UHGV virus genome: UHGV-1366603
DNA: 64,000 nucleotides
Strand: one strand, 5' to 3'
Source: a virus
Positions 973 to 8,102 of the stretch are shown here, piece after piece. Numbering within the stretch: position 1 is the first letter of the stretch; every line of letters begins with the position of its first letter. A program made the position numbers and the translations under genes. The notes under the pieces are model-generated. The model had not been told where the DNA came from and searched no databases. It saw only the letters and a program-made list of their open reading frames with translations.

Positions 973-3900
973 TTAATCGCGAATGATTACCGCCTGCACT
1001 TTATTGTTGGTGTCGATAAACGACATTACGCGCTCCTTGTTAAGATAAGGAGGTATCGGTAACGCAGCGTAATCCGCCAGGTTGTTATTAAACTCGGTTG
1101 CCACTAGCGCATTAAGCGTTTCGGGGTCTGAGCTTGTCCCGGCCAATTCCATGACACGTACACGATTTAACGAGGAGTAGTTGCTAATATAATCCAGCAG
1201 CGTACCGTAGAGTTTGTTCCCGGTTATGCTGTCTGCCGTAGAACGGATATTAGCACGCACTTCGTCCTCATAAAGTCCCCCTAAACCGTAGTAAATAGGG
1301 GTGTACGGATCGTTAACGATAGGTGCAATATTGAACCCGGTTAAACGGTCGCTTAGTGGGATTTTCTGCGTAGTGCCGCCTGCTGCTGTACAGCTTACGT
1401 ATTTATCTACCGCAGACAAGTACACCACGATAGTGTAAACGGTACCTGCTAAGGTCAGCGATGCGTTAAACGTTAAGTCGTTATTCGCACCACGCGTGTG
1501 TGTAAAAGTCACATCGGGTTGTAACGTACTCCACGGTGCAGGTGTAACACGTTTGGTGGGCGTGAAGCCTAACACCACAGATTTCCCGTTACCGAAGTTT
1601 AAACCAAACCCGGCGTAACAATACTCGCCGTTGCTATCAGTTAACCGATAACCACGGGTGACAAGTAACGACAACCGCATAAACTCGCCATCGGTGTTTT
1701 TCCAGCAACCCAGGACGGTTTCTAGCACCGTTCCGGTTTTTGCGTTGCTTTCGGTTTCCCAACTGACTCGCATCCCCGCATTGTTAAATACTGGGAACAA
1801 GTTGTGGATAAACCCGTGAACGTTATCACTTACCCCTTTCGCATCAAACACCCACTTCGACGCAAGCTGGTCGTATTTCACACCATCGAGTGCTTTATAT
1901 CCACCGCCAACCACATAACGCCAATCTGCCTCGCCACGCACAACCGCTTGAAGTCCAGAAGCCCAGCAGGGCGCACCTACTGTTAAATTGCTTAACCCCA
2001 GCACTGCACGCGGAGCAGAACGCTGAATATGTGCGTTGTCATTAGCGACGTGGTCTTTCAATTCACGGAAATCGCCTAACCGTGTCACGTTACGTAGTTC
2101 AGTAACGAACACTTCAGAAAGGTCGTTAATACCGATCAGCCCCACGCGCGTCATGGTATCCGTTTCAGCCTGACTGTAGCTGTCGTGAATAATATACTTC
2201 GCTTTGTTATCGACAATGTCAACAAAAATCCCTGCGTAAATTTCCTTATTCAGATTCGGGAAACGTTCAGTGACGTTAACCGACATCAACGGCACGTCGT
2301 ACGTTTCGCCGCCAATGAAATACGTGGAAGCAGGAAGTGTCACCAGGATTTTGTCTTTAACCGTAACGTCAATTAGGTCGTTACCGGACTTACCAAAGCG
2401 AATAATGTCAACGCGAGCACCCGAGTCAACCCCACCGACGGTATTCTCCAAATCTTCAATCTGGGAAGTCTGCGCCATCACCACACTACCATCGAGTGCT
2501 AAGGTGACATCATCCACATCCAGACCGAACTTAATCAGACCCCGTTTCGTGGTGTCTGCGTTTTCAACACCGAACACAGAAGACGGGTGTTGGTGAACCT
2601 TCGGTGAGTATTTGTCTAACTCAGTCTGTTGTGCAACAGAAATCGGTAAGTCAACGTCCGGGGTATTCGCAACGTTACCTAAACCAAAGGTAATTTTGTC
2701 GATAGTAACCGAACTGGTAAGCTGCATGTCGTTGATGTACGACTTGGCAGCAACCAACTTACCAGTAAACTCTGCGTCCAGTTTTTCAATTAGCGCAGGA
2801 GTCGCCGCGAGGTTTTCAGCCGTACCAAACTCGTCAGTCAACTGCCAACACGCTAACGTAGTAACGTCTTCGGCAACCGGAAGGATAAACGTTGCGACAA
2901 ACGGCGATGCTTTAATCCCGCTACCGGTAAGTTCCACCGTAGACGTCGACGCACCGTAGAACAGACCTGTACCGCCTGCGGTATTACCCGGCAAATACGG
3001 ACCGACCGTAGTGGGGTCTAAGAGCTTCTTACCACGCCACAACAATCCACGGTCATCGGGGTATAGCACAAGCTGGTTACCGCCTGCTTGTAACGTAACA
3101 GGGTTATTACCCACGTTAACATCGGTAGAACCTTGACCGATGAACTTAATGGATTTCGGATCAACGACGAACTGGGCACCTAAACGTTTTTCGTCAACTA
3201 CACCAGGTGCTTTCTTAATGGTAACCGTGTTACCTTTGTTTTGCGAACTAATAGAGACGCCGTCAGCAACATTATTGATCAGCGATTTAAAGTGATGCTG
3301 ATTCTCTAATGCTTCTAACGCAGCGTCCATGTTATCGAAGTTAATCCGGGAGCTATACGTTTTACCGTTTAAGCTAATAACGGCGTCAAACACGTTCCCT
3401 GTACGCTTCAGTTGAAAACGCAGCGTAAAATCCCCATCCGGTATTGCTGGATCAGGAGCTTGAGAAATGTACCGAACTGACGGTACCGGATTCCCGTAAC
3501 CGTGCAACGACAGTTCGATAGTAAGAGTACCACTCCGGACTTCACCGAAAATCTCTACGTACTTACCGGAGTTACTACCGGGATTTTCGTAGAAACGTAA
3601 ACCGGCCCTACCGACTGCCTCATTACCAGACGCTGTTTTACGTCCAGTAACAATAAAGTCAATATCTTGCAGGCTGGCGGGTACCGCGTTAAAAGAAGCA
3701 CTAAATCCATTCTTCGTTCCTGTGTAACGAAGTGCGCCGTGATACGTGCGACCTTGACTAACATAGCTTTCGCTAAAATAAGGATTCACGTATTTAGACA
3801 TCGAAACCGGATCAACTTCTGTCGTGAACGAAGTAAAACCGGATAGCGTTCCAATGGTTCCGTCGGCCGTTTTCGTAGTTGACGTGCGCAGTAGTTTCTT

Positions 3901-5295
3901 TTGCGCAGTCAATGTTGCTTGCGTTGGATACTTAGCATTAACATAATCTGTTAACTGCGGCTTCGTTTTTCCGTAAGCTAACGCTGCATCCGTCGCAATA
4001 CCATTCAACTCTAACGCACGAATCGGGCCCCAAGTGTCAGCGTGTGGGTTATCCTTACGAGTGACGTGTTCGTGTGCAGGGGCGTTGCGATAGAGTTGTT
4101 CTACTAACTGATGGTACTTAACGATTAGCTGATAAACGTCATTACTTACGTCGGCTTCTGGCGCACCAGGTAACGCAAGGAATTGAGCGTAATCGTTTTC
4201 AGCCGCCCACCAGTTTAAGTTAACGTTGGTTTTGTATTTCAGCCACTTCGCAACGTCGGTTTTGCTGTAACCTGCTGAGAATTCGTCTGGCGGTGTGTCA
4301 ACGTTAAACGTATAGTCCATGGACTGTTTGTTAGTCGTTACCTCGATAACGTATACACCATTACCCGGCTGACGAACGACACTAAACGTTAACTCGCCTT
4401 TTAATTCATCGTCGGTCAAACCGTTGATTAACGTATAATCGTAATCGGTCGAACCACTGCCTAACGCAACCGTTAGACGTAGGCCGATTTTACGTTGTTT
4501 TAATTGGAGACGAAGGATACTTGCGCCACCGTTCGCGTAACACAACATCCAATCGATTTGTTCGTTCGGATTAATACTCCCCATATTCGGAAAAATAGCC
4601 GGAATGCGGTATTTCATCGACAGGGAATATTCATTTAACGTGGTGGTTTTGTACGTAACAGAGAAACGACGTTTAGCGGTATTGTAAGTATACCCACCTT
4701 TGTTGTCGTACGTTGCGTACTGTTCAGACGTGATAACCGTGCCATTAGCGCGATGCTCGATATCTAACGTGTTACGTGCAATCGGGTCTACCCGATTCAC
4801 CACGTTACCTAACGAATCACCTAAGCCTGCAATGGCCTGCATTAATTCCAGTTCACCTTTCCAGTTTTCCCAGTCAAACTGAATATCAACCGGTGGAAAG
4901 TAAACGTCTCCGATAACGGTATCCCATTGACACGCAGACGGGTATTTATCTTTATTGAGTTCGCGTTCTGCGGTAATCTGTTCTTGGGTCGCTTCACCAC
5001 AACCTACGGCGTGGTAATCTACCGTGAAATTCGATTTGTATTTGTCGTTAACAATCCAAATCATCCCGTGCACGAGATAGGCTGTGCGCAACATACCGGT
5101 CTCGTACGGGTGTGTAATAACGTAATCGTCGCCTAAGGTCAGTATTTTGCCGCCGCTCTTGACCACCAGGGATGTGGTGAAAAAAGGGGCGTGGGCAGGT
5201 ACCAACATTCGGTACTTCGTACCAATGACGGCGACCGCTTCACCGGTTATTTTATTCCCCGGTTCTTTGAAGTGTGGGTCTAGGACGACAGCCAT
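973..5295 (-). CDS. large tail fibre / tailspike-like virion protein (1440 aa)
   Basis: ORF track. N-terminal domain (..AHAPFFTTSLVV..GDDYV..) is shared with the upstream partial gene. Size and Gly/Thr/Asn-rich repetitive body are typical of fibre proteins. No enzymatic motif recognised. Confidence 0.6.
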   Translation of the reverse strand: MAVVLDPHFKEPGNKITGEAVAVIGTKYRMLVPAHAPFFTTSLVVKSGGKILTLGDDYVITHPYETGMLRTAYLVHGMIWIVNDKYKSNFTVDYHAVGCGEATQEQITAERELNKDKYPSACQWDTVIGDVYFPPVDIQFDWENWKGELELMQAIAGLGDSLGNVVNRVDPIARNTLDIEHRANGTVITSEQYATYDNKGGYTYNTAKRRFSVTYKTTTLNEYSLSMKYRIPAIFPNMGSINPNEQIDWMLCYANGGASILRLQLKQRKIGLRLTVALGSGSTDYDYTLINGLTDDELKGELTFSVVRQPGNGVYVIEVTTNKQSMDYTFNVDTPPDEFSAGYSKTDVAKWLKYKTNVNLNWWAAENDYAQFLALPGAPEADVSNDVYQLIVKYHQLVEQLYRNAPAHEHVTRKDNPHADTWGPIRALELNGIATDAALAYGKTKPQLTDYVNAKYPTQATLTAQKKLLRTSTTKTADGTIGTLSGFTSFTTEVDPVSMSKYVNPYFSESYVSQGRTYHGALRYTGTKNGFSASFNAVPASLQDIDFIVTGRKTASGNEAVGRAGLRFYENPGSNSGKYVEIFGEVRSGTLTIELSLHGYGNPVPSVRYISQAPDPAIPDGDFTLRFQLKRTGNVFDAVISLNGKTYSSRINFDNMDAALEALENQHHFKSLINNVADGVSISSQNKGNTVTIKKAPGVVDEKRLGAQFVVDPKSIKFIGQGSTDVNVGNNPVTLQAGGNQLVLYPDDRGLLWRGKKLLDPTTVGPYLPGNTAGGTGLFYGASTSTVELTGSGIKASPFVATFILPVAEDVTTLACWQLTDEFGTAENLAATPALIEKLDAEFTGKLVAAKSYINDMQLTSSVTIDKITFGLGNVANTPDVDLPISVAQQTELDKYSPKVHQHPSSVFGVENADTTKRGLIKFGLDVDDVTLALDGSVVMAQTSQIEDLENTVGGVDSGARVDIIRFGKSGNDLIDVTVKDKILVTLPASTYFIGGETYDVPLMSVNVTERFPNLNKEIYAGIFVDIVDNKAKYIIHDSYSQAETDTMTRVGLIGINDLSEVFVTELRNVTRLGDFRELKDHVANDNAHIQRSAPRAVLGLSNLTVGAPCWASGLQAVVRGEADWRYVVGGGYKALDGVKYDQLASKWVFDAKGVSDNVHGFIHNLFPVFNNAGMRVSWETESNAKTGTVLETVLGCWKNTDGEFMRLSLLVTRGYRLTDSNGEYCYAGFGLNFGNGKSVVLGFTPTKRVTPAPWSTLQPDVTFTHTRGANNDLTFNASLTLAGTVYTIVVYLSAVDKYVSCTAAGGTTQKIPLSDRLTGFNIAPIVNDPYTPIYYGLGGLYEDEVRANIRSTADSITGNKLYGTLLDYISNYSSLNRVRVMELAGTSSDPETLNALVATEFNNNLADYAALPIPPYLNKERVMSFIDTNNKVQAVIIRD

Positions 5296-5362
5296 TATCT
5301 ACTCCTATAGTCCGTGGGCGTCGAGTTCATACTATGACTTGAATCTATTGAGGAAAAGAGCT

Positions 5363-6625
5363 GTGACTACTGCTTATCAAGTGCGGCCTGACAGCGCTTT
5401 TGGCTTCTCTCGTGAGACCCGTACCTGGGGAGCCATCGACGTCACGCAACCCTTAGAAACCTTGTGTTCTGATTACCATATTTTCGAAGTCGGTCTGAGT
5501 GCGCTTGGTAAAGACTATACGTTAATTAGCCAATATCACCTCGCTGACTTACAAAACCGTACCGATACATTACAAGACTGGCTGAATGAAAAAGCCGGTG
5601 TGGTTATCTCTGCGTTGAAAGACGGTTTACCGACGTTAGAGTTTGATTGGGCACACTATCAATCGATTAATGCTGATGTTCCAGTAGAAACCTATCTGTG
5701 TCCTCCTGGTTATCACTACAGTCAAGAATTCAGTATAGACGATGCTGACGACGTTGTGATTGTTTGCGAAGATAAATGGAAAGACAAATACCGTAACGGG
5801 GTGCTGTATAACATCAACGGTCAATGGGTACCACATCAGTCGGATACTGTTGGTGTACGTTTACCGGGTGCAGGTAAGATAGTACGTCGTGCAGGGACAC
5901 CGGATATCGGGTGCATGGTCTTTAGTAAATTGGGGAATGTTAAAACGTACCCCATTGCTAACTTGACCTTAAACAAACTCGACACCACCCGTGACTATTA
6001 TTCCACGTTAATGATTTCTTTACCGGAATCTATTACAGGTAAAACCGTGGGGTTTGTTATCGGGGGACTGATACACTGGTTACCGGTTACTGGGTACTTC
6101 TCCGACAAAGCCATTATGGTGTCGCTACCGAACTTTGACGTTGCGCGTACTGTGTTAGAAACACGTCGCTATTACGATTGGGACAGTATTGGTGTTGGCG
6201 ATTTATCATCGCCGACCAGCGTACAGCGTATCCGCAACCCAGAAACGTTAAAGGCGCTTTTAACCCACGAGTCGTCGTTTATCTTTACGGTGGATAATCC
6301 GTATCTGGAAGAAGAAGTTGTGGGGGTTTCTCACAACGCTATCTGGGGACGTTTATACCTTAAAGATCCTACTGACCCTGACGGGGAAAAGCAGCTGGGG
6401 TATCTGTTAAACCGCTTCGGTAAAACCGTTGCCTATTGGCCGACGTGGGAAGAAGGGGAATGGGTATTTAACACCACGGAGTTCGACAGTCAAAACTACG
6501 TGTTCCGTGAAGCCCGCTGGTATAACCAGAAGAAAATTAACGATGCACAGGCAATCGTAGGGCCTTTCGGTCCCTGGGAAAAAGTCTATTTGGAAATGCA
6601 TCGTTTCCGTGCAAGAAAAAAATAA
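5363..6625 (+). CDS. hypothetical protein (~420 aa)
   Basis: In-frame GTG at 5363 with AGGAAAAG 5 nt upstream. The longer TTG-initiated ORF from 5147 would overlap the upstream gene by ~150 nt. No recognisable domain. Confidence 0.5.
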   Translation: MTTAYQVRPDSAFGFSRETRTWGAIDVTQPLETLCSDYHIFEVGLSALGKDYTLISQYHLADLQNRTDTLQDWLNEKAGVVISALKDGLPTLEFDWAHYQSINADVPVETYLCPPGYHYSQEFSIDDADDVVIVCEDKWKDKYRNGVLYNINGQWVPHQSDTVGVRLPGAGKIVRRAGTPDIGCMVFSKLGNVKTYPIANLTLNKLDTTRDYYSTLMISLPESITGKTVGFVIGGLIHWLPVTGYFSDKAIMVSLPNFDVARTVLETRRYYDWDSIGVGDLSSPTSVQRIRNPETLKALLTHESSFIFTVDNPYLEEEVVGVSHNAIWGRLYLKDPTDPDGEKQLGYLLNRFGKTVAYWPTWEEGEWVFNTTEFDSQNYVFREARWYNQKKINDAQAIVGPFGPWEKVYLEMHRFRARKK

Positions 6626-6630
6626 GTAAC

Positions 6631-6672
6631 CTCCTACCCTCTTAGAGGGTAGGAGTAGCACGTTTTTTTTTT
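6631..6672 (+). terminator. terminator-like hairpin (CTCCTACCCT-CTTAG-AGGGTAGGAG) followed by T10
   Basis: 10-bp stem between convergent genes 5363..6625 and 6676..6885; the T-run starts ~8 nt after the stem. Confidence 0.45.
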
Positions 6673-6675
6673 CAC

Positions 6676-6885
6676 TTAGTCTTTTTTGTAGACGATCGCG
6701 TTACCGTGCAGTTTGTTGTTACCGGAAATACCGATAACTTTAAACGCTTCACCGCCGATCTTTTCAGCTTCGACAGCCAGCTTAGCAGTAACGTCGTCTA
6801 CGGTGTCACCGAAAGCGCTTACGTTACCAATTTTCTTGAACTCTTCAGGAATGTGTTCAGCAGAAGAGAATTCTTTAATAGCCAT
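6676..6885 (-). CDS. small YdgH/BhsA/McbA (DUF1471)-like domain protein, no signal peptide
   Basis: 69 aa. C-terminal pattern ..KLAVEAEKIGGEAFKVIGISGNNKLHGNAIVYKK matches the DUF1471 signature (..SG.N..HG.A..YK). Confidence 0.5.
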   Translation of the reverse strand: MAIKEFSSAEHIPEEFKKIGNVSAFGDTVDDVTAKLAVEAEKIGGEAFKVIGISGNNKLHGNAIVYKKD

Positions 6886-7084
6886 AGCTACTCTCCAGTT
6901 AAAGAAAGGAAGGACTGTATCGTGTTACAACCAAAGCATAAGATAGCTCCTCCCCGAAGGGAGGAGTGAGTGCGCGAAAAAAGTGGCCTGCTTAACTAAA
7001 CGATGAGGTTTAAGAAAAGTGTTGATAAGAAGCTTACCAACGTCAGGTCACAATATATAATACCAACGTAAGAAAAAGGGGAAA

Positions 7085-8050
7085 TTAGCGTGGGCCTGAA
7101 GTTGGGCCATGTACACCGTCGTGGATGTGTACGCTGAAGGTAATACCGGAAATCACCGCATCCTTAACTGTAAAGACACCCACACCTTCACCCGTACCAC
7201 CGTATTTGAAGTTCTTAGCAACTTCCAAATTACCGGTGAACATCGCTTCATTACCCTCTTGCTTAAAGTTCGGCGTTTTATACGTTGTGGAACCGGAGGC
7301 TTCGGTTAGCCACGTTTCTGTTTTAAAGGTAACCGATTTCGACGCTTCGGTATTCCGAACTTCGCATTTCTCATTAATCGTTTTCGTTTCCAGGTTAATC
7401 GAACGTTTTGCGTAAATGAACGCATCTTCTTTGTTGATGTTCACTTTCGAGAGCATCGCGTTCTCAAAACCTAAATCGTCTTCCACCGAGTTAATGTAAT
7501 ACTTATTCCCTTTATGGTCAACGCACTGCCACGACCCGTTAGCGTTATCGAATTGGAATAACCACGCCGCTTTCTCCCCGTTCACCATACTTGTTCTTAG
7601 GGTAACGTGTTTGTCAATCGTTGAGACGTTTAACACATACGCGTTCGACAAGTCATCCGCCATCTGGTTTTCAGGGTCAGCAGACCACGCGTAAACCGCA
7701 TCCTCTAATCGCTTAACGTTAGCGAAATTCAAATCAATCCAAAAATAAATATCGGTTTGCCCTAGACGTAGCAAGATAACATAATCTTCACGCTTAACGT
7801 CTGGGGAATTAATTCGATTGGAATTAAACTTCCACCACTTTGCGGTAATCGTGTTACCGGTTTTAATCGTTAGGTTGTCGGTAGCACCCCCGGCTTCGTG
7901 TACCTTTTCAGCGGTTGAGGAAACTGACTGTACAACGGTAGGGTTCGCAAAGTTGGTTTCAATGGGAATAACACTCACCCGATCCGTACCACGAGGTTTA
8001 TCTTCCGCGACGATACCAATCGAGAAAAAGTCAACGCTGGATTTCTCCAT
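7085..8050 (-). CDS. hypothetical protein (321 aa), possibly virion-associated
   Basis: ORF track; Thr/Asn-rich beta-type composition; lies in the minus-strand structural block. No motif recognised. Confidence 0.55.
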   Translation of the reverse strand: MEKSSVDFFSIGIVAEDKPRGTDRVSVIPIETNFANPTVVQSVSSTAEKVHEAGGATDNLTIKTGNTITAKWWKFNSNRINSPDVKREDYVILLRLGQTDIYFWIDLNFANVKRLEDAVYAWSADPENQMADDLSNAYVLNVSTIDKHVTLRTSMVNGEKAAWLFQFDNANGSWQCVDHKGNKYYINSVEDDLGFENAMLSKVNINKEDAFIYAKRSINLETKTINEKCEVRNTEASKSVTFKTETWLTEASGSTTYKTPNFKQEGNEAMFTGNLEVAKNFKYGGTGEGVGVFTVKDAVISGITFSVHIHDGVHGPTSGPR

Positions 8051-8080
8051 TAGGTCGTTCCTTAGATCGGAAATGTAATC

Positions 8081-8102
8081 AGATATATTTTACTTAGGTG
8101 AG
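8081..8102 (+). promoter_or_regulatory. candidate phage promoter motif AGATATATTTTACTTAGGTGAG, followed by a hairpin at 8104..8130
   Basis: Member of a recurring AT-rich motif family (see findings); sits at the head of the plus-strand block. Confidence 0.3.

Follow-up and report, generated by a model that had tools for sequence, protein, structure and literature searches.

Proteins with a DUF1471 domain have been reported only from Enterobacteriaceae/Enterobacterales, in which there are about twelve paralogous subfamilies, typically with periplasmic signal sequences, and most members carry an N-terminal signal sequence that directs them to the periplasm (PMC4092069, PMC11705850). The family is large and specific to the Enterobacterales, and it includes BhsA (YcfR), YbiJ, McbA (YbiM), YahO, YhcN, SrfN and YdgH. 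Here we describe a DUF1471 protein of 69 amino acids (aa) that has no such signal, encoded on the minus strand at 6676..6885, with an ATG start, in a stretch of 64,000 nucleotides (nt) of the virus genome UHGV-1366603, which we refer to as the window. The gene is an orthologue of that for gp172 of Salmonella phage SPN3US and belongs to PHROG 8068. The protein is like the bacterial DUF1471 proteins in fold, in core residues and in the size of the mature protein, but unlike them it has no Sec signal, falls in a separate clade, and is encoded in the tail-gene block of a virulent phage and not in a stress regulon. We tentatively suggest that it is made late and folded in the cytoplasm, and that it is an accessory protein attached loosely, or in low copy number, to the periphery of the tail or baseplate. 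A phage copy of the domain offers an independent route to the binding target of the family.

The domain had been recognised in a first-pass annotation, made from the sequence of the window, by the C-terminal end of the protein, ISGNNKLHGNAIVYKKD, and a hidden Markov model (HMM) search bears this out, as Pfam PF07338 matches residues 17-67 over profile positions 2-55 of 55 with E=3.4e-10 and 40.3 bits, against a gathering cut-off of 27 bits. PF07338 is also matched by 17 of the 17 phage relatives tested (best E 3.8e-19), and PHROG 8068 matches at full length (E=1.1e-31, residues 1-69 against profile 1-70 of 70). The closest relatives of the phage protein are in the BhsA/YbiJ/McbA group, and the core residues that it has in common with the bacterial DUF1471 proteins are G..T..D..L..A...G..F.....G.N..HG.A..YK. 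A word-indexed protein search gave the close phage relatives only, and the bacterial homologues were reached by exhaustive HMMER search.

The computed mass is 7.4 kDa and the isoelectric point 5.6, and there is no cysteine. An AlphaFold2 model of the protein has a mean predicted local distance difference test (pLDDT) score of 88.3, with strands at residues 4-6, 16-26, 47-56 and 58-68 and a helix at 29-43, and the top Foldseek matches of this model are the DUF1471 structures 2m2j, 2jna, 4evu, 2ma8 and 2noc, with template modelling (TM) scores of 0.72-0.77. On the model, then, the protein is one complete DUF1471 domain with a compact alpha+beta fold. No second DUF1471 copy was found within the 64-kb window. 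The best superposition of the model is with RcsF, the outer-membrane lipoprotein sensor of the Rcs envelope-stress system (TM 0.83-0.84 to 2y1b, 2l8y and 9biy_B). The similarity in fold of DUF1471 and RcsF was already known, and the function of RcsF needs its disulfides (PMC4092069). The phage protein differs from RcsF in having no detectable sequence similarity to it, no lipoprotein signal and no cysteine.

That the protein lacks an export signal had also been claimed, and the sequence bears this out. The N-terminus, MAIKEFSSAEHIPEEF, is acidic and hydrophilic with a net charge of -3, and over the first 35 residues the Kyte-Doolittle hydropathy of 10-residue stretches peaks at 0.4, within the range of 0.15-1.4 for all phage homologues; by the same measure 32 of the 33 full-length bacterial proteins give 1.9-3.1. 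The one exception, P0018, has a 23-residue N-terminal extension that shifts its signal peptide beyond the stretch that was scanned. The bacterial homologues (n=33) begin with a positively charged n-region, followed by a hydrophobic core, and have a cleavage site of the AXA type, whereas the hydropathy and charge scan detected no signal peptide in any of 17 phage homologues. In alignment the phage protein begins at residue 22 of YahO, which is the first mature residue after signal cleavage, and the phage protein thus corresponds to the mature domain plus a leading methionine. We considered a longer open reading frame (ORF) with a hidden signal peptide, but this is ruled out by an in-frame stop upstream of the ATG, which leaves no room for an extension (in the ORF program a frame begins with whichever start codon comes first after a stop in the same frame). 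Judged by its sequence, the protein is one that is made and kept in the cytoplasm, without a Sec signal peptide.

The gene is present in 60 phage records found by tblastn, for all of which the organism or host is Erwinia, Salmonella, Escherichia, Cronobacter or Proteus, so that the restriction to Enterobacterales extends, if indirectly, from the listed organism or host, to the phage carriers. A length of 67-73 aa is maintained in the 60 phage genomes. The orthologues of SPN3US gp172 (SPN3US_0172 / YP_009153466) include those of phiEaH2, Stratton, Asesino, SPAsTU, Wellington and CR5. The window protein resembles the gp172 family in its length of 67-73 aa, in the absence of a signal peptide, in being encoded in the same slot and in having the same bidirectional terminator after the gene; it differs from SPN3US gp172 itself in being of another allelic type (42% identity), and its gene in not having an upstream stretch of about 33 nt that bears the element AAnnTTAC. 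In 10 loci of Seoulvirus, Erskinevirus, Wellingtonvirus and Derbicusvirus the gene order is a gp173-type gene, the DUF1471 gene, a converging gp171-type gene and a gp170-type gene, with a spacer of 200-410 nt between the gp173-type and DUF1471 genes, in which an extra small ORF is annotated in Wellington. A metagenomic contig with this gene order encodes a protein of 91% identity. Another homologue without a signal, P0003, is 75% identical and is filed as Salmonella enterica (NCBI Third Party Annotation, 23-kb contig), and this is probably a jumbo-phage contig and not chromosomal.

With regard to existing names, the family is already catalogued and annotated in public phage genomes, and what we have here is one further member of PHROG 8068, an ordinary gene family and no new kind of system. 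In RefSeq the SPN3US ORF172 product is named 'DUF1471 domain-containing protein', and in GenBank the product name in the Erwinia and Salmonella phage records KX397373, MH426724, KX397369 and MH221129 is 'multiple stress resistance protein BhsA'. The best NCBIfam model for the window protein is indeed that for BhsA (NF047859), to which the best phage homologue gives E=1.9e-16, but the window protein reaches 47.4 bits where the curated equivalog cut-off is 90, and every NCBIfam equivalog cut-off was failed. The proteins of the four GenBank records likewise score well under the BhsA cut-off and have no signal peptide. Because of this score and the lack of an export signal, the name BhsA is, on the sequence data, too specific for the phage genes and an over-annotation. 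Correction of this public annotation is a practical yield of the analysis, together with attention to the conflicting data on the virion status of SPN3US gp172. Our search of the literature found no paper on DUF1471 in connection with SPN3US, or on BhsA in connection with jumbo phages.

The proposal that this is a captured host domain is well supported. The domain has been reported from Enterobacterales only, and the phages that carry the gene all infect this order. Homologues of gp171 are found in 148 phage records across the phiKZ-like group, and in the nearest outgroups, Vibrio phage pVa-21 and Escherichia phage Goslar, the gp171-type gene is directly next to the gp173-type gene and the junction contains no DUF1471-like ORF. 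The phylogeny against host homologues that had been called for puts the signal-less phage proteins in a single clade apart from the signal-bearing bacterial proteins, in a neighbour-joining tree that was built on 51 domain columns and carries no bootstrap values. The gene has a G+C content of 0.433, compared with 0.457 for the window, and is thus ameliorated. Given a domain reported only from Enterobacterales, outgroups without the gene, one phage clade and an ameliorated G+C content, we infer that an ancestor common to Seoulvirus, Erskinevirus, Wellingtonvirus and Derbicusvirus took up a host gene once, long ago, and that the signal peptide was cleanly lost. The ratio of nonsynonymous to synonymous substitution rates (dN/dS) among close orthologues is 0.01-0.18, which indicates purifying selection and hence a functional protein. 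The significance of the family lies in this, that a signal-less copy has been long under purifying selection and is always among baseplate genes.

Since its capture the gene has not kept step with its neighbours. There are two allelic types with about 42% mutual identity, one including the window, phiEaH2 and SPAsTU proteins, within which the window protein has 71-78% identity to the others, and the other that of SPN3US, to whose gp172 the window protein has 42% identity. The distribution of these types is discordant with the flanking genes (loci L001, L002, L003, L009 and L010 compared with window 5363-8050). Thus for SPAsTU and SNUABM29 the gp173 homologues are 82% identical and the gp171 homologues 89%, but the DUF1471 proteins only 41%, while for SPAsTU and Stratton the corresponding values are 70%, 80% and 90%. 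The discordance suggests either recombinational exchange of a cassette or an episode of fast evolution in the SPN3US lineage, and mosaic behaviour of this sort, as far as can be judged from sequence comparison, is typical of accessory or host-interaction cassettes and not of core structural genes. Wellington (locus L007) has a second signal-less DUF1471 protein, gp189, of 186 aa, encoded at 3287-3847 (+) directly downstream of the gene for the 73-aa protein. It matches PF07338 with 29.7 bits over residues 22-66 and has a Foldseek TM score of 0.85, and its acidic, low-complexity C-terminal tail of about 120 residues is presumably disordered. The arrangement looks like the result of a tandem duplication.

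The first-pass annotation had raised the possibility that the protein decorates the virion, and for this the published work on SPN3US is the relevant evidence. In 2017 gp172 was found in one virion preparation purified by a caesium chloride (CsCl) step, where 4 unique peptides and 6 spectra were assigned to it and 81% of its sequence was covered (PMC5694885), and was described as the smallest virion protein, of low abundance and unknown function (PMC5694885, Ali et al. 2017). The gp172 sequence yields four tryptic peptides in all, and these are the four that were detected. At 0.86 spectra per kDa gp172 is above the accepted low-copy tail proteins gp173 (8 spectra, 34.6 kDa) and gp25 (6 spectra, 14.6 kDa), in a comparison that uses the 'Single Sample' column of the 2023 table (PMC10052503), which we took to be the 2017 data because its count for the major capsid protein, 1592, equals the 2017 value. 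It has thus been shown that SPN3US gp172 is made as a protein, but its stable membership of the virion is equivocal in the published data, and a decoration role is no more than plausible, as the protein was seen in that one preparation and is missing from the 2016, 47(am1) mutant and 2023 sets that are discussed below. The paper on Asesino contains no virion proteomics, and a literature search for proteomics of pSal-SNUABM-04 gave nothing useful.

The reading that we prefer, while putting it forward only as a tentative one, is that of a loosely held or low-copy accessory of the tail or baseplate periphery. A host DUF1471 gene would have been captured once by an ancestral phage and have lost its signal peptide, as would be required for recruitment to a particle that is assembled in the cytoplasm. 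The protein would be transcribed with the late genes, probably from a TATG-type promoter, would fold in the cytoplasm, which is the site of tail assembly, and would there join the tail or baseplate periphery in low copy number or loosely; loose attachment would account for gp172 being seen after one gradient and not after two. The particle would then return an envelope-type domain to the next host cell, at its outer membrane or in its periplasm, where the bacterial relatives act, for example to bind an envelope component during adsorption or penetration. If it is true that the protein rides on the particle, we have a host envelope domain that is re-delivered from outside. It is also conceivable, though we think it improbable, that such particle-carried protein, loosely on the baseplate and with its RcsF-like fold, is a mimic or decoy of host envelope proteins of the DUF1471 or RcsF type, which might for example blunt an envelope-stress or capsule response that stands in the way of infection.

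Several observations weigh against a place on the particle. gp172 was not found in the 47(am1) mutant particles, for which the authors noted that the low-mass region of the gel may not have been sampled (PMC5694885); it is not in the spectral-count table for four SPN3US particle preparations of 2016; and it is not among the 102 phage proteins of a dual-gradient study of 2023 with a more sensitive instrument (PMC10052503). That study used three wild-type and three tailless-head replicates, and the smallest protein that it lists is of 10.5 kDa (PMC10052503), and the missed detections may instead reflect the loss of small proteins from gels. The gp172 of the 2017 preparation could be a soluble protein that co-purified. 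The SPN3US evidence in any case transfers only partly, as gp172 is 42% identical to the window protein and of a different allelic type. In addition the gene has more the character of a moron than of a core structural gene, with an upstream terminator and an evolution that is out of step with its flanks.

The gene may then be a moron whose product has no place in the virion, which we regard as quite possible though not as our first choice. Its product, made during infection, would be soluble in the cytoplasm and act on a new intracellular partner, or would be set free by lysis and act on the surfaces of neighbouring cells, and would only now and then co-purify with particles. Like the phage lambda morons bor and lom it is an extra gene among conserved structural genes, has a putative terminator and promoter of its own, belongs to a host envelope family and is not found in related phages. 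It differs from the classical morons, which act from a prophage and whose products retain an export signal, in that it belongs to a virulent jumbo phage and its product no longer has such a signal. The insertion at a convergent junction that is empty in the outgroup phages, the bracketing by terminators with a putative promoter of its own, the SPAsTU/SNUABM29 and SPAsTU/Stratton discordances, the Wellington duplicate with its long disordered acidic tail, and the absence of gp172 from most SPN3US virion data sets all fit a moron well. They have to be set against the detection of all four feasible gp172 peptides in CsCl-purified virions, at a level per kDa above that of accepted tail proteins, and the strict retention in four genera of the slot inside the tail/baseplate block. 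The relatives moreover act in the envelope, and YdgH without export loses its function (PMC11705850), so that a cytoplasmic role would need a wholly new partner; if the protein does stay in the cytoplasm, then the fold must have a partner there. The other suggestion of the first-pass annotation, a cytoplasmic mimic, finds neither support nor contradiction in the data.

A role in assembly, in which the protein would associate in the cytoplasm with proteins of the gp173, gp171 or gp168-170 type and for the most part leave the completed particle, would suit a small, acidic, single-domain protein whose gene adjoins baseplate and tail-fibre genes in every genome and whose detection in virions is sporadic and at a low level. 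However no chaperone action is known for DUF1471, the outgroups build homologous baseplates without the gene, and its evolution is uncoupled from that of the flanking structural genes, and we consider this role unlikely. The GenBank product names, and the BhsA model being the best NCBIfam match, would agree with a true stress-resistance protein of the BhsA type, which would guard the envelope of the infected cell as BhsA does for the host, but the score of 47.4 bits is far from the equivalog cut-off of 90, none of the 17 phage homologues has a signal peptide and hence a Sec route to the periplasm or outer membrane, and a YdgH without its signal fails to complement (PMC11705850), all of which makes this very improbable. 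It is hardly credible that the ORF is spurious, or decaying and without function, although it is small and a lineage-specific insertion, given the length of 67-73 aa in 60 phage genomes, the low dN/dS (0.01-0.18), a good ribosome-binding site, the detection of the SPN3US protein by mass spectrometry and the confident prediction of a fold. Two antisense ORFs on the plus strand, 6706..6969 and 6713..6946, are artefacts, as it is the minus-strand frame that the substitutions between phages follow (dN/dS 0.01-0.18).

Turning to expression signals, the ribosome-binding site is a Shine-Dalgarno sequence, GGAGAG, at 6891..6896 on the minus strand, 5 nt before the ATG and with a spacing of 7 nt from the GGAG core, as read from the sequence. 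The gene was described as flanked by hairpins, and there are stem-loops on both sides, at 6631-6655 (z=-4.8) and 6947-6966. The downstream one, 6631..6655, is by its structure a predicted bidirectional intrinsic terminator, with a stem of 11-12 bp and a folding energy of -21.6 kcal/mol. It is flanked by an A-run at 6663-6672 and a T-rich run, TTATTTTTTT, at about 6615-6624, and with an A-run before and a T-run after the hairpin it should be able to terminate both of the converging transcripts. The stem is kept in 9 phages through compensatory changes. An Rfam match to the PyrG leader at 6619-6697 (-) was rejected, as it has 32 bits against a gathering cut-off of 65 (E=0.041) and overlies the A-run and the terminator hairpin, and is likely due to chance. 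The upstream hairpin, at 6947..6966 on the minus strand, is terminator-like, CTCCTCCC-TTCG-GGGAGGAG, with a G+C-rich stem of 8 bp and a UUCG loop. The 61-nt fold has z=-1.1, which is by itself not significant, and hairpins of differing sequence are present at this position in 6 of 10 orthologous loci, with none in SPN3US.

The motif TATG is found at 6937..6940 on the minus strand, 52 nt before the ATG and ten bases past the upstream hairpin. In the 10-locus alignment the seven loci of Seoulvirus, Erskinevirus and Wellingtonvirus have TATG(C) at this position, and the three Derbicusvirus loci have TTTG or ACTG there, with TATGC a few bases downstream. The core of the phiKZ late promoter is 5'-TATG-3', with G as +1 (PMC4666361), and the motif at 6937..6940, short as it is, is a candidate for the core of a late promoter of phiKZ type, used by the non-virion RNA polymerase. 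The terminator-like hairpins on two sides and the conserved TATG might mark a transcription unit of its own, but the upstream hairpin is lacking in SPN3US. An AAnnTTAC element is present about 24 nt upstream of the TATG in locus L001 (about 3960-3990) and in the same place in L002, L003, L007, L009 and L010, and this geometry of the other phages is that described for phiKZ middle promoters. The window has lost the stretch of about 33 nt that bears the element (the site is at 6941-6946), so that its hairpin abuts the TATG, and regulation of the gene may, on this comparison, differ between the window phage and its relatives. The phiKZ middle-promoter-like pattern AAnnTTAC-N-TATG is not enriched within the window (2 observed against 2.3 expected), and a scan of the window for sigma-70 promoters gave no excess over shuffled sequence. 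Further upstream in the spacer an 11-mer, GCCACTTTTTT, at 6977..6987 on the minus strand does not vary among the window, SPN3US, Stratton and SPAsTU; the remaining loci of Seoulvirus, Erskinevirus and Wellingtonvirus have it almost unchanged, and in the three Derbicusvirus loci it is degenerate. We considered it as a repeated regulatory motif and rejected this, as it occurs once in the window, which is not above chance.

The neighbouring genes are of virion type as the first-pass annotation had stated, but its placing of the gene between such genes on the minus strand stands only in part. The upstream neighbour, 7085..8050, is on the minus strand and encodes a homologue of SPN3US gp173, a protein of baseplate assembly or puncture (PHROG 3216, E=4.9e-112). 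The downstream neighbour, 5363..6625, lies however on the plus strand and runs towards the DUF1471 gene; it encodes the homologue of gp171, a tail or baseplate protein (PHROG 3337), with 77-81% identity to the SPN3US and phiEaH2 proteins. Beyond it, at 973..5295 on the minus strand, is the gene for the gp170 homologue (paralog family C), a tail-fibre or baseplate protein assigned by PHROG 7557 and synteny. In SPN3US gp173 and gp170 are classed as tail proteins (PMC10052503 Table S2) and gp171 is essential and tail-associated (PMC5105663), so that in that phage all of the neighbours are tail proteins. The ORF called mechanically for the gp171-type gene, 5147-6625 (+), is over-extended: it overlaps the 5' end of the 973..5295 (-) gene, and the PHROG match starts at residue 77. 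The likely start is the GTG at 5363, which is preceded by GAGGAAAAG and gives 420 aa, as for SPN3US gp171. In the DUF1471 protein itself a match to the AXE motif of prohead proteases (AVE, residues 37-39) was discounted, as it lies inside the helix and is not found in SPN3US gp172, recovered at 81% coverage.

The source phage is related to SPN3US and to Erwinia phage phiEaH2, and phages of this kind other than Asesino we take to be phiKZ-like, nucleus-forming jumbo phages. For Asesino, a close relative, formation of a nucleus has been shown (PMC11724907). Nucleotide identity to any record of a 2025 phage collection is at most about 75-76% (regions 6000-8100 and 40000-64000), the nearest being phiEaH2, Stratton and Asesino, and the 64-kb DNA is apparently that of a species of the Erskinevirus/Seoulvirus group not yet described. 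From about 55.6 to 63.9 kb it matches the region of phiEaH2, Stratton and Asesino that has the genes for beta subunits of RNA polymerase and one more whose annotated product is a tail fibre protein.

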